Source of the DNA: an uncultured delta proteobacterium
GTDB taxonomy: Bacteria > Desulfobacterota > Binatia > UBA9968
Length of the DNA stretch: 64,000 nt
Assembly (NCBI GenBank): GCA_963755715.1
Contig: CAVWLW010000027.1
Location: 160,001-224,000, forward strand
Reading direction: 5' to 3'
Position 1 is the first letter of the stretch; each line of letters opens with the position of its first letter. Shown here piece after piece: positions 31,247 through 35,003 of this stretch. Position numbers and translations under genes: made by a program. The notes beneath the pieces are model-generated. The model was not told where the DNA came from and searched no databases. It saw nothing but the letters and a program-made list of their open reading frames with translations.

Positions 31247-32297
31247 TCAAGACTCCGATCCATCCGGTATGCTCAGAACAACTTTACCAAATTGCCGCGC
31301 CTCTTCGACGTAGCGTTGCGCCGCTGCCGTTTTCTCGAGCGAAAAAACTCTATCGATGATCGGCTTGATTTTGGCTGCGGTCAAAAAACTGATCAGTTGA
31401 CGAAACTCTTCTCGGCTGCCGAGAGTTGAACCGTAGATTTTAAGTTCCTTCGAACAAATCGCCGCGATATCGTCGATCGGTTGGCCGCCCGCCGTGGCGC
31501 CGCAGGTCACCAGACGCCCGCCGCGCGTCAAAGATGCAAGGCTTTTCTGCCAGACTTCGCCGCCGACGGAATCGAGGACAACATCGACACCGCGATTTCC
31601 AGTCAGCGCCTGCACCGCACCGACAATGTCCGTGTTCCGATGATTGATGCCGTGATCCGCGCCCAAACTCCGAGCGCGTTCCAGCTTCGCATCACTGCCG
31701 GAGGTGACGATCACGCGCGCGCCGATGTCTTTTTGCCAACTGCATCGATGCGCTCGCCACGCCGCCGCCGATGCCGATGATAAGAATGGTTTCCCCCGGT
31801 TTCAGCTCGGCGTTGGTGATCAACATTCGCCACAGCGTGATGAACACCAGCGGGAAGGCAGCGGCTTCTTCGAATGAATAATTTTGCGGAATAGGAAAAC
31901 AATTTTGCGCCGGCAGCTTCACGTATTGCGCGTAAGTGCCTTCCATTCTTTCGCCGAGGACGCGCAAACGAAAACACAGGAAGTCGCGATCCGTCAAGCA
32001 GAATTCACACTGGCCGCAGCCGGTCAGCGGATAGAGACAGACCGGATCACCGACTTTGACATTCGCGACTTTCGCCCCGACTTCTACGACCACGCCGGCG
32101 CCATCCGCACCGAGAATGTGCGGCATCGGCACGACAATGCCGGTTGCGCCCATGCGGTTCCAGATATCGATATGATTGATCGCCGCCGCTTTCAGCTTGA
32201 CGATCACGTCATCGGGCTCAATTAATCTTGGCTCGTCCGCCTCTTCGTAGAAGAGTTGCTCCACGCCGCCGTAACCGTGCATGCGAACTGCCTTCAA
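31247..32297 (-). CDS. Zinc-binding dehydrogenase/quinone oxidoreductase (MDR); frameshift near 31715-31735
   Basis: TTG start after AGGAG; NHIDIW, ILGADGAG, CGQCEFC, GIGGGVA and GKVVL. Confidence 0.85.
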
Positions 32298-32461
32298 GAA
32301 ATTTCTCCTGCTTCGACAGACAACTCGGTAACAAGAGAAATTTTTGAAGTCAAACCGGCGTGCACGGCAAAGGAGTCTCTTCACACCGAACGGCGCTTGA
32401 ATTCGAACTACAGAACGCGCGGCTCTGTTTCGAAAATAAATGTAAGTTTAGCTTTAGGGTA

Positions 32462-32575
32462 GGGTGTCCCCTTAGCGGGGACACCCCGGGGTGATAGCGT
32501 CAAACATGAACCGAGGAGGGGAGTCCATGCTCACGCTCGGGAACTTGTTTTGCCGGTGCAATCCGGCAAGTCGAA
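32462..32575 (-). ncRNA. Candidate structured RNA of three stem-loops, with a CCUCCU anti-SD loop
   Basis: Stems at 32550-32569, 32496-32537 (15 bp, with three G-U pairs that form only on the minus strand; loop UCCCCUCCUCG) and 32462-32486 (perfect 10 bp). Confidence 0.55.
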
Positions 32576-32583
32576 AAAAACAT

Positions 32584-32784
32584 TTACCTCATTCGATTCA
32601 TAGCGAACTGAAGCTTCTTAAGCTCACTCTGCAGAAACAGATCCTTTAACTCATGACGATCCATATGCGCTTCGAGCAACTCTGTGGGAAACATTCTCGC
32701 ACCACAGCGATTGCAGACCGCCGCGCGAAAGGTTTCCTTTTCAAACTGGATGTCGTGCGAATCGGTGCTGTTTAATGATTCCAT
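32584..32784 (-). CDS. 66-aa C2H2 zinc-finger microprotein
   Basis: CNRC-GARMFPTELLEA-H-MDR-H fits C-x2-C-x12-H-x3-H; GAGGGA RBS; own promoter. Confidence 0.75.
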   Translation of the reverse strand: MESLNSTDSHDIQFEKETFRAAVCNRCGARMFPTELLEAHMDRHELKDLFLQSELKKLQFAMNRMR

Positions 32785-32826
32785 TTGTCCCTCTTTATTC
32801 GATTACTTGCAGACGATGCAGGCTAG

Positions 32827-32843
32827 AGCAATTGATATGCCAG
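32827..32843 (-). promoter_or_regulatory. sigma54 (-24/-12) promoter
   Basis: CTGGCATATCAATTGCT has GG-N10-GC and is close to consensus; about 43 nt upstream of ATG 32784. Confidence 0.8.
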
Positions 32844-32868
32844 TTCGGAAGGCGCTGAAAGGATCGGC

Positions 32869-32881
32869 CAACATATTGATA
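32869..32881 (-). promoter_or_regulatory. IHF binding site
   Basis: TATCAATATGTTG matches WATCAANNNNTTR exactly, at about -53 to -65. Confidence 0.65.
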
Positions 32882-32950
32882 TCTCGTAGAATCGGCTTGA
32901 CAATGGCAAGTGGACAAACAAGTTTCCGCACAAAGTCCGATCGTGGCGGT

Positions 32951-32965
32951 TGTCAATCGTTGACA
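32951..32965. promoter_or_regulatory. Candidate enhancer (bEBP) site
   Basis: TGTCAA-tcg-TTGACA palindrome at about -135 to -149 from the predicted start site. Confidence 0.55.
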
Positions 32966-33287
32966 TTTTTGTGCTCCGATCGATCAGGATCTACCCATGA
33001 CGGCTTCAAGGCTTGACTCGATCGCGGGTGCCAATTTTTTGGCGGACAAAGCATTGGAGTCGCATATAGGGCCTATCCGCAGATCGGCAAAGTAAGATCG
33101 TACTCGACCGTGGCAATGCGGTGGCGGCGCGCGACCGTGAGATCACTAAAGAGACGCGCGAAAGGACGCGCTGGCAACGGCATCGGCTTTAGTCCGAGGC
33201 GCAAGGCGCGCCCTTACACGGACAAGAAATCACCGCCCGGAAAATGCAGCAGCGTATTAGGAGCTGCGTGAAAGCGCTGTAAAAAAT

Positions 33288-35003
33288 TCAAACTTGGCGC
33301 AAGATCGCCATGCCGTGACCGGCGAGAGAGATGCGAACCGCGCGACGATTGCCGCAAGTTTCCACGCTAAGCCGCGTTTTGGGGTCGAGTAAGTTGGTCA
33401 GCTTGGCGCCATCTTTATTGAGATTGGCGTCCACCGTCACGTAGTCGGTTCGAGGAACCGCTTCGAGATTGAGCGCGATCAGCACTTCGGTATCGTCGAG
33501 GATTCTCGAGTATGCCAGGGTGCATCGACCATCGAGCGGAAAGCCGAAGTCGATGCCATTGCCGGAAATCTCTCGAAAATATTGGCGACCGTAGCGTAGC
33601 GCCGGTTCGTTTCGGCGCACCGCGGCGATTTGCGCGATGCTTTTATAGATCGGATTTCCCGGTTTGAAAAAGTGGCGCTGCCGACTGTCGAAAGCGCCCC
33701 ACTCGCCGCCGAACATGCACTCCCGCACATAGCTGTCATTATCGCCGCCGCCGTCGAACCCCTGCTCCGTGCCGTAATAGATGCACGGCACTCCCTGGCT
33801 CGTCAGCAAATAACCGATCGTCTGCGCCGCTTGTGGTGGAAACGGATTGGCGTGCATGAACCGCCTATAGGGGCGCGCCATCTGGTCGTGGTTATCGACG
33901 AACGTAACGAAATATTGGCCGGCTTCGCCGTGGTCGGCGTACTCGGTCTTAAAGCGCTCGTAACGCGCGCGCAACTCCGCCGGATTCAAAAAACCTTTGA
34001 GGGTTTCCTCTAAAATAAAATACAGGGGAAAATCCAGCGCAGCGTCGAGCGAGGGAAAACGTTCGTTGGTCCCTTCGATTCGGCTGTTGCGGCCGAGGTA
34101 ATGCTGCAGCGTTTGATCGTCGGCGACGATCTCGCCAAAAATAAAAAAATTGTGCTTGCCGATGCGCCGGGCGTACTCGCGAACTGCGTTGCAAAAGATC
34201 GCCGTCGCACTCGATTCCATATGCTTGACCGTATCCAAACGAAAGCCGTCGATGTCGGCGGCAGCGATCCAGTACTTGTAGACCTTGATCAGCCCGTCCA
34301 ACACGTCGGCGCGCCGGATATCGAGCTCTTTCAAGCTCAAAAAATCGCCGTTGATCGCCTCTTCGGGATCGCTCCAGTTGCGGATCTGGCCGCGCCGCTT
34401 GTAACTCTCCGGCCGCTGCAGCTCGATCGGCCAAACCGCGTCGTCTTCTTGCAGGTTCGGTGCTGCCTCGTTTTCGCGCCAGAAACCGAAATCGAAGGGA
34501 GCGCTTGATTGATTAGAATAGAAGTATGGAAAATCGCCGGGATAGGCCCAATTGTCGCCGGTGTGGTTCAAGATGATATCGAGGATCACATACATGTCGC
34601 GCGCGTGGGCTTCGCTGACGAGTTTCTGTAAATCTTCTTTGGTGCCGAAGCGCGGATCGACTTCAAGAAAGTTTTGGATGCCGTAGCCGTGGTAGCTGTC
34701 GGCTTTTTCCCGGCGATTTTTCAATATCGGGCTGAGCCAGATCGCGTTGGCGCCCAATCCTTTAATATAATTTAGCCGGCGCATGATTCCTTTGAGATTA
34801 CCGCCTTGAAAGATTTTTCCTTGCGCCGGATCTCGGCCTTGCGGCCCCGATGCGACATAGGGCCGCAGACCCTTGCTGTTATTATCAAAGCGGTCCACGA
34901 GTAAAAAATAAACAAATACATCGCGCCAATCGGCTGGAGACGAAAAGACATCATCTTGCGGAGTAAAATCCAACTGCTGAACGGATCGAAGCGGCTCGGC
35001 CAT
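33288..35003 (-). CDS. GH13 alpha-amylase family glycoside hydrolase (no signal peptide)
   Basis: YFLLVDRF, YHGY, DIILNH, GFRLDTVKH, FGE and FVDNHD conserved regions. Confidence 0.92.
   Translation of the reverse strand: MAEPLRSVQQLDFTPQDDVFSSPADWRDVFVYFLLVDRFDNNSKGLRPYVASGPQGRDPAQGKIFQGGNLKGIMRRLNYIKGLGANAIWLSPILKNRREKADSYHGYGIQNFLEVDPRFGTKEDLQKLVSEAHARDMYVILDIILNHTGDNWAYPGDFPYFYSNQSSAPFDFGFWRENEAAPNLQEDDAVWPIELQRPESYKRRGQIRNWSDPEEAINGDFLSLKELDIRRADVLDGLIKVYKYWIAAADIDGFRLDTVKHMESSATAIFCNAVREYARRIGKHNFFIFGEIVADDQTLQHYLGRNSRIEGTNERFPSLDAALDFPLYFILEETLKGFLNPAELRARYERFKTEYADHGEAGQYFVTFVDNHDQMARPYRRFMHANPFPPQAAQTIGYLLTSQGVPCIYYGTEQGFDGGGDNDSYVRECMFGGEWGAFDSRQRHFFKPGNPIYKSIAQIAAVRRNEPALRYGRQYFREISGNGIDFGFPLDGRCTLAYSRILDDTEVLIALNLEAVPRTDYVTVDANLNKDGAKLTNLLDPKTRLSVETCGNRRAVRISLAGHGMAILRQV

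Follow-up and report, generated by a model that had tools for sequence, protein, structure and literature searches.

The 64,000-nucleotide (nt) stretch of contig CAVWLW010000027.1 analyzed here (the window), which comes from an uncultured delta proteobacterium, carries on its minus strand a small locus in which a gene for a predicted zinc-finger microprotein of 66 amino acids (aa) is preceded by a sigma-54-type promoter and followed directly by an RNA tail of three hairpins. Comparison of relatives indicates that the protein and the fold of the tail are both maintained by selection, and assembled RNA contigs hold the two together. Our tentative reading, to which we give somewhat less than an even chance, is that the locus has two outputs, the microprotein and the tail as a regulatory RNA in its own right. 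A reading made from the DNA letters alone (the sequence-only reading) had picked out, in order, a palindromic enhancer-like site, a site for integration host factor (IHF), a sigma-54 promoter, a ribosome-binding site, an open reading frame (ORF) with a Cys2His2 (C2H2) motif, and stem-loops. All are present on the minus strand, at or adjoining the coordinates given for them (Table 1). The description given by that reading is accurate apart from its outer limits of 32462 and 32965: the conserved upstream motif begins at 32974 and RNA coverage reaches 32435.

The three hairpins (32569-32461) fold with a minimum free energy of -60.6 kcal/mol (z = -5.5), and 0 of 200 shuffled sequences gave a value as low. 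In a MAFFT alignment of 22 tail sequences, RNAalifold recovered the three hairpins with 31 base pairs, seven of them compensatory. In this alignment 97.2% of paired cells can pair versus 38-50% when the partners are slid, and at most 1 of 500 shuffles reached the observed values. With 78 distinct sequences 97.0% of cells pair versus 41-49% with slid partners, and 15 of the 31 pairs (91 cells) are compensatory versus 3-5 pairs in the slid controls, a result reached by 0 of 500 shuffles. Note that the 78-sequence alignment was fitted to a covariance model and is thus biased towards structure, whereas the 22-sequence MAFFT alignment is independent of the model. The C/U-rich loop that the sequence-only reading had attached to its three stem-loops belongs to the middle one (hairpin 2) only. 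In hairpin 2 compensatory changes were seen in 7 of the 13 main-stem pairs (78 sequences), and the mean pairwise identity of its loop is 1.00 (22 sequences); CCTCCTC was found in 67 of 68 metagenome tails. The arms of hairpin 3 have identities of 0.93 and 0.91 and the hairpin-1 stem 0.895, whereas the loops of hairpins 1 and 3 are at about 0.40 (0.395 for hairpin 1) compared with 0.53 at third codon positions of the ORF. These comparisons demonstrate, or come close to demonstrating, purifying selection on the fold of the tail, on one loop sequence, and on one stem sequence. A reading of hairpin 3 as a repeat element was rejected because its sequence occurs once in the genome, and a hidden ORF in the tail (an 18-codon frame in the window) was rejected because orthologs carry 1-2-nt indels in the loop region. 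No Rfam 15 family matched positions 31500-34000 at E up to 10.

The tail and the ORF travel together. The covariance model, built from the 22 tail sequences, found a single full-length tail in each of 25 of the 61 related genomes, always adjoining the ORF match. The genomes having a complete top ortholog are precisely these 25. One more copy, the 26th, is truncated where its contig stops, and the sole other match to the model is weak (22 bits). In metagenomes 80 loci were collected, 69 of them distinct and 65 of these with at least 200 nt of upstream sequence; the tail lies directly after the ORF in 79 of the 80 and the last has just 29 nt past the ORF. The joint conservation of the -24/-12 promoter box and the downstream structure, which had been put forward as a check on the locus, was thus found in the homologs. 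Relatives of the ORF are more widespread, being found in 33 of the 61 genomes and in 29 of 30 genomes of the same genus, with two or three family members per genome. Public records of these relatives are metagenome-assembled genomes from uncultured soil and sediment bacteria with labels that include Candidatus Binatia, "delta proteobacterium", Syntrophobacter sp. SbD2, and Thermodesulfobacteriota.

Mean pairwise identity at codon positions 1, 2, and 3 of the ORF is 0.87, 0.92, and 0.53 (22 orthologs), indicating that it is a translated gene under protein-level selection. Judged from its ligands and a structural model, the product is almost certainly a single classical Cys2His2 finger with the recognition helix extended into a conserved, partly basic C-terminal helix. 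Its predicted parts are a disordered N terminus, a beta hairpin, the C24-x2-C27-x12-H40-x3-H44 finger, and a helix from residue 36 to 65 that ends in the conserved ELKKLQ..MNRMR. The four ligands (CxxC-x12-HxxxH) are invariant in 37 sequences from three paralog families and have the classical spacing, C-x2-4-C-x12-H-x3-5-H; the earlier assignment of a 66-aa C2H2 ORF is therefore borne out. Zinc binding by C24, C27, H40, and H44 is predicted from the ligands and the fold. An AlphaFold2 model made with a 37-row alignment has a mean predicted local distance difference test score (pLDDT) of 80.4 (84-97 over residues 21-60) and shows the beta-beta-alpha arrangement, with a disordered N terminus, short strands, and a single helix over residues 36-65. 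In some orthologs (L013, L015-L017, L040, and L042) tandem MEA-x repeats lie between the ATG proximal to the ribosome-binding site and the conserved core, such that the length of the N terminus varies.

Among solved structures, the family profile finds eukaryotic C2H2 fingers (HKR3, E 3.5e-4; ZBTB17, 1.6e-3; the human fingers span E 3.5e-4 to 5e-3). The best Foldseek rows are C2H2 and UBZ fingers with root-mean-square deviations (rmsd) of 0.8-2.0 A over 22-29 aligned columns, with E values above 1 owing to the tiny size of the domain (about 25 residues). A VIA-align comparison with 48,161 chains gave a best Z of 4.2, none being above noise, and prediction of a homodimer from two copies returned no answer (score 0.00), which carries no weight either way. 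No Pfam or NCBIfam model scored above threshold for the protein or its paralogs, which gave sub-threshold rows only. In the Pfam scan at E up to 10, zf-C2H2 (PF00096) gave no row for the window protein and 16.7 bits (E 0.01) for paralog 3, versus a cut-off of 25.2, and neither ROS_MUCR nor DUF1127 matched the window protein. In the ESM Atlas the protein falls in unnamed clusters of its own, followed by a DUF629 cluster and a zf-C2H2 cluster, which we treat as leads only. A profile search gave 291 protein clusters at 90% identity, all lacking Pfam domains; some bear the label "ribosomal protein S27AE", assigned automatically by JGI, which finds no support here. An exhaustive profile search of a 1.8-billion-sequence library gave 229 representatives at 50% identity, including long poly-finger proteins.

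Conservation across orthologs supports putative sigma-54 control of the gene, with an upstream activator site and an IHF-like site. The promoter candidate has GG and GC doublets exactly ten bases apart, as in the consensus TGGCAC-N5-TTGCW, and lies upstream of the gene. In the set of 20 genome orthologs used for promoter counts, a strict -24/-12 box (TGGCAT-N5-TTGCT type) precedes the ORF in 19, the 20th having TGGCATATCAAATGCG. Of the 65 metagenome loci, 56 have the strict box and 64 the relaxed one, and the sole locus without it has a 3-nt insertion inside the box. Over the 7.4-megabase (Mb) genome the strict pattern TGGCAY-N5-TTGCW matches 59 times versus 6 times for a reversed control, and the near-consensus sigma-54 promoter of the sequence-only reading stands. 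The genome has rpoN (one Sigma54_DBD gene) and 31 genes for enhancer-binding proteins (Sigma54_activat, E < 1e-59). One alignment row (L007) comes from a genome flagged as unpublished (G005), and no count rests on L007 alone. Elsewhere in the genome of the window (G000) three strict sigma-54 boxes lie within 1.6 kilobases on one strand (G000:C24:1960-3585), a contig that holds 9 of the 59 matches.

The activator-like region lies at about -158 to -112 relative to the predicted start. Its best-conserved enhancer-like core is CACAAAAWTGT, found in 19 of the 20 orthologs at -127 to -132 from the -24 box, whereas the TGT-N9-ACA frame of the palindrome is kept in 14; the palindromic site noted from the letters is present but is not the best-conserved core. 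A second element, TTTGTKY, is found in 14 orthologs at -91 to -95 from the -24 box, and the first upstream motif is present in 59 of 64 metagenome loci. A regulon search found the composite motif once in the 7.4-Mb genome, at this locus only. NifA-type sites have the form TGT-N10-ACA, and this assignment was rejected because the spacing here is N9. The IHF consensus site claimed earlier is present between the activator site and the -24 box, where IHF-assisted promoters would have it, and matches WATCAANNNNTTR. The pattern alone is not significant (two window matches versus 1.29 expected), but its position at -39/-40 from the -24 box is kept in 18 of 20 orthologs (11 exact and 7 relaxed); of 64 metagenome loci, 31 match exactly and 53 match the relaxed pattern. 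The genome encodes three HU/IHF-family proteins, among which IHF is indistinguishable from HU. Downstream of the promoter, the ribosome-binding (Shine-Dalgarno, SD) region GAGGGACAA is unusually invariant (Table 1), and GAGGGACA is found in 59 of 65 metagenome loci.

Of the words sampled from an 801-nt region that includes the locus, six RNA runs contain 25-34% and DNA runs 67-82%; the uncovered parts of this region are not by themselves evidence of silence. A short whole RNA contig came from each of four runs, which belong to four different soil metatranscriptome studies (32452-32789, 32491-32787, 32435-32801, and 32435-32770). All four span the stop codon (32584) and hairpins 1 and 2, and three also cover hairpin 3. 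No RNA contig lies on the promoter or farther upstream, the upper ends (32770-32801) being downstream of the box. In one run a further contig, of low depth, covers part of the downstream gene. Assembled contigs give neither strand, ends, nor level, and hence are supporting but weak evidence. They fit one transcript that runs from just below the -12 element to slightly past hairpin 3, and they support co-transcription of the ORF and the tail, as the sequence-only reading had it.

The paralogs separate the shared features of the family from those of single lineages. Paralog 2 (69 aa, C2H2; G000:C32:57477-57731, L048 / L071) is preceded in 16 of 16 loci by a sigma-54 box, at a distance of about 50 nt. 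Unlike the window gene, it has TGTCA/TGACA-type repeats upstream, with an ordinary GGAGG site, and it carries a 3' element of its own, a 13-pair hairpin with a CCCCC-rich loop followed by CCCCUCCC, in which 9 of 18 pairs are compensatory. Paralog 3 (49 aa, C2H2; G000:C9, L069 2379-3408) has the box in 4 of 4 loci and may form a small-protein operon with the small ORFs that follow it. Among those small ORFs is one of 90 aa that is rich in Cys, and a similar ORF follows paralog 3 in genome G019. Comparison of the paralogs and of divergent homologs indicates that sigma-54 control is common to the family and that two lineages have a C-rich structured tail.

The locus would be transcribed as a single self-contained unit of some 370 nt, running from about 32816 to about 32440 on the minus strand. 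An enhancer-binding protein located about 110-160 base pairs upstream, probably aided by an IHF-type bend, would almost certainly activate sigma-54 RNA polymerase at TGGCAT-N5-TTGCT. With similar near-certainty, the resulting monocistronic RNA would encode the 66-aa single-finger microprotein and have as its 3' part the three hairpins that selection maintains. If the tail is itself a regulatory RNA, the CCUCCUC loop and the flanking unpaired C-rich runs may pair with G-rich or SD-like mRNA sequences, acting within the full-length transcript or after processing. The loop is proposed to be the base-pairing seed because seeds are usually displayed in this way, in an invariant C/U-rich apical loop (7 nt here) above a covarying stem. 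Such pairing would be Hfq-independent, a mode proposed because Hfq (PF17209) was found in 0 of the 41 genomes of the order that were searched, several of them closed. The finger protein may bind nucleic acid, and the likeliest ligand would be its own transcript, at the hairpin-3 stem and the GGGACA of the ribosome-binding region. Such binding would couple the protein to the stability of the RNA or to its own translation. The invariance of the hairpin-3 stem, whose loop is free to vary, suggests either sequence-specific duplex recognition or alternative pairing. GGGACA is common to the invariant ribosome-binding region (32785-32793) and the invariant 3' arm of hairpin 3, GGGGACACC (32462-32471), and may be a motif recognized at both places or may reflect alternative pairing; the finger protein made from the same message is the evident candidate for reading it.

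Several observations weigh against the two-output reading. The sequence-only reading as a whole is partly supported, and among the parts that found no support is its claim that the RNA blocks ribosome-binding sites in trans. The complementarity is generic: GAGGAGG occurs 640 times in the genome, 205 of these before ORF starts. The seven ORFs with a 10-nt match share no theme, and three of the five that were scanned belong to unrelated Pfam families (POR_N, NMT1-like, and amidohydrolase). Anti-SD-like sequence is confined to a single loop of the three. Release of a separate RNA of about 110 nt from the tail is not indicated by the contigs, which show no ends or level. Paralog 3 has further small ORFs in place of a structured tail, and in divergent homologs of the window gene's own group (50-59% identity, L043-L045) the box is retained but the 3' hairpins are different ones that lack CCUCCUC. 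None of the 31 strong enhancer-binding-protein genes of the genome lies within the window. Lone C2H2 fingers often have proteins, not nucleic acids, as their ligands, and UBZ is among the fold matches. Anti-SD action in trans, processing to a short RNA, and binding of the RNA by the protein are proposals. The 9-nt loop complement CCGAGGAGG occurs 77 times in the genome, 24 times before starts, one of which is that of the paralog-2 gene; judged from the sequences, this match is not kept in other genomes. The search for targets by loop complement was set aside as uninformative; in this one genome it gave only generic SD complementarity. The 3' end of 16S rRNA was not found in the assembly by pattern search.

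Much of the same evidence suits a tail that acts only in cis, with the protein as the sole output and no trans targets. Hairpin 3 would block exonucleases or protect the 3' end, and the C-rich runs would fold onto the ribosome-binding region of the same message or bind the encoded protein, thereby setting the level of the microprotein. This is a serious alternative, although we consider it rather unlikely. In genomes and metagenome loci alike the RNA occurs only beside the ORF, the RNA contigs carry the two together, and complementarity to other messages is generic. The invariance of GAGGGACAA goes beyond the needs of a plain SD and the sequence resembles the hairpin-3 3' arm; in a fold of the full transcript the SD pairs with the C-rich tail past hairpin 3. 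That helix has just 4 pairs, however, and the CCUCCUC loop, as read from the sequence, fits GAGGGACAA poorly (4-5 pairs). Moreover, a stem that simply protects an end needs neither an invariant stem sequence nor an invariant apical loop.

Alternatively, the protein could be an effector that makes no contact with the RNA, binding another protein (sigma-54 RNA polymerase, an enhancer-binding protein, or the ribosome) or binding DNA as a dimer on a palindrome, with the tail independent of it, for example as a decoy for another RNA-binding factor. Both faces of the C-terminal helix are invariant over its last 13 residues (ELKKLQ..MNRMR), which would suit a tight interface, protein-binding fingers of the UBZ type are among the best fold matches, and the engineered finger-zipper DNA-binding dimer 1llm is a weak VIA-align match (Z 3.8). 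Three sigma-54-dependent paralog families with different upstream motifs would also be expected of signal-specific small modulators. We nevertheless judge this to be unlikely: two paralog lineages keep a structured C-rich tail of their own beside the ORF, which suggests coupling, and the neighboring genes (enoyl-CoA hydratase, alcohol dehydrogenase, and a luciferase-like gene) point to no partner. A further reading, and one that we hold to be distinctly improbable, is a self-contained, Hfq-independent ribonucleoprotein (RNP) switch in which the protein reads the hairpin-3 stem and its own GGGACA, the loop damps GGAGG-led mRNAs, and the three paralog modules answer to different sigma-54 activators. 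If true, such a switch would give these uncultured soil bacteria signal-specific post-transcriptional outputs.

Table 1 Features of the zinc-finger microprotein locus, in window coordinates
Feature	Positions	Strand	Basis or remark
Activator-like upstream region: GCACAAAAATGT (32974-32963) overlapping the palindrome, then TTTGTGC (32934-32928)	32928..32974	minus	Sequence and conservation
Palindrome TGTCAACGATTGACA	32965-32951	minus	Inside the longer conserved motif starting at 32974
IHF-like bending site TATCAATATGTTG (pattern WATCAANNNNTTR)	32869..32881	minus	Pattern match and fixed spacing
Putative sigma-54 -24/-12 promoter TGGCATATCAATTGCT	32827..32842	minus	Near-consensus; predicted start about 32816
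Ribosome-binding region (SD) GAGGGACAA	32785..32793	minus	20/20 orthologs
66-aa zinc-finger ORF	32584..32784	minus	ORF list, codon-position conservation
Hairpin 1 (UUGCCGG / CCGGCAA)	32550..32569	minus	Stem conserved, loop varies
Hairpin 2, apical loop CUCCCCUCCUC, invariant CCUCCUC at 32519-32513	32496..32537	minus	Fold and covariation
Hairpin 3 (GGGGUGUCCCC / GGGGACACCCU)	32461..32487	minus	Stem sequence nearly invariant, loop variable
3' tail of transcript, C-rich then A/U-rich	32435..32460	minus	Limit of RNA contig cover

The gene neighborhood was compared at 17 loci, with the 33 longest of 136 flanking frames scanned. The upstream neighbor is a divergent ECH_2 enoyl-CoA hydratase gene in 12 of the 17. 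The window itself has instead an alpha-amylase-family gene (33288-35003, minus), apparently through a local rearrangement that spared the entire promoter region. Downstream, a same-strand zinc-dependent dehydrogenase gene is found in 8 of the 17 and a convergent luciferase-like gene in three (L009, L014, and L019). Neither an activator gene nor an evident partner gene was found among the neighbors. The dehydrogenase gene of the window (31247-32384, minus) is in two overlapping frames, 31692-32384 and 31247-31714, but at orthologous loci it is a single ORF of roughly 350 aa; by this comparison the split would be a frameshift or an assembly error.

The frequency of the same-strand dehydrogenase gene, together with a strong GC stem (hairpin 3) at the end of the RNA contigs, could be taken to mean that the hairpins are a leader or attenuator of that gene or are ordinary terminators. 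We disfavor this explanation as highly improbable. The tail is fully intact where the next gene is the convergent luciferase-like gene, and hence it is not the leader of the dehydrogenase gene. In addition, the four locus RNA contigs end short of the dehydrogenase start, and invariant loop and stem sequences are not what this explanation would require. No U-tract follows hairpin 3, where orthologs read CCCUUCCCCCAAAA past the stem, and a terminator scan reports no site there; the same scan finds U-tailed hairpins behind the upstream amylase-family gene.

Compared with known systems, neither the protein nor the RNA tail belongs to a described family. The sequence-only reading had not recognized the combination as described, and this agrees with the absence of Rfam, Pfam, and NCBIfam matches and with a literature search that, within the collection of papers covered, found no description of either molecule. 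On the protein side, the likeness to eukaryotic zf-C2H2 fingers lies in the C-x2-C-x12-H-x3-H ligands, the canonical Leu, and a beta-beta-alpha model with an rmsd of about 1 A over 23-29 residues. It differs in being a single finger in a 66-aa bacterial protein with a helix extended to 30 residues and no Pfam zf-C2H2 match. Note that TFIIIA is an RNA-binding C2H2 protein. Among bacterial proteins, the Ros/MucR regulators have a Cys2His2-type zinc site (PMC9779718). The window protein shares a site of this type but is shorter and has no Pfam ROS_MUCR match at E up to 10. The ligand spacing and fold of Ros/MucR also differ from those of the window protein, and to our knowledge eukaryote-type C2H2 fingers are rare in bacteria outside Ros/MucR.

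On the RNA side, RoxS/RsaE of Firmicutes and RepG of Helicobacter are stand-alone, Hfq-independent small RNAs (sRNAs) having C-rich loops that pair with G-rich ribosome-binding regions. The tail resembles them in its unpaired C-rich motifs in loops and linkers but has no sequence or structure relation to them and no Rfam match. GlnZ is an sRNA derived from the 3' untranslated region (3' UTR) of the glnA mRNA in enterobacteria, the transcription of which is under the enhancer-binding protein NtrC (PMC9731577, 10.1101/2022.04.01.486790). The two share an activator-controlled mRNA that carries an RNA element in its 3' UTR. The parent ORF of GlnZ encodes a large enzyme and the sRNA is Hfq-dependent, whereas the ORF here encodes a microprotein in a lineage with Hfq in 0 of 41 genomes. 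Cuckoo RNAs have 2 to 4 adjacent hairpins with CCUCCUCCC in each loop (PMC4615179). The tail has its motif in one of three hairpins and it reads CCUCCUC followed by GG, not CCUCCUCCC.

The closest design is that of ccaF1-CcsR1-4 in Rhodobacter sphaeroides, in which an RpoHI/HII promoter drives the gene for a 71-aa DUF1127 protein, CcaF1, together with 3' UTR sRNAs, and CcaF1 binds RNA and affects the sRNAs (PMC8034643). The likeness consists of a small ORF (71 aa there and 66 aa here), an alternative-sigma promoter, and a structured 3' UTR with a C/U-rich, anti-SD-like loop. In contrast, the protein here is a C2H2 finger with no homology to DUF1127, and the putative promoter is of the sigma-54 type with an activator site rather than of the RpoHI/HII type. 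The RNA here is present in single copy per genome, has no Rfam match, and occurs in a different phylum. The comparison with CcaF1/CcsR drawn by the sequence-only reading thus holds as an analogy of design, whereas membership in the cuckoo/CcsR family fails on every tested feature (loop motif, Rfam, and DUF1127).

The locus brings to light a whole family of one-finger bacterial microproteins under putative sigma-54 control, in which the same message can carry an RNA structure that is itself maintained by selection, in a lineage where Hfq was not found among the genomes searched. The covariance model and the protein profile could become new Rfam and Pfam families, and the parts of the locus are short enough for in vitro tests that do not require culture of the organism. 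In relation to ccaF1-CcsR, the locus is a non-homologous module of a small protein plus a 3' UTR RNA that has a bacterial classical zinc finger and sigma-54 wiring. If its protein and RNA cooperate, it would be a second, non-homologous instance of the CcaF1-CcsR type of design and would point to a general logic of operons that pair a small protein with an RNA.

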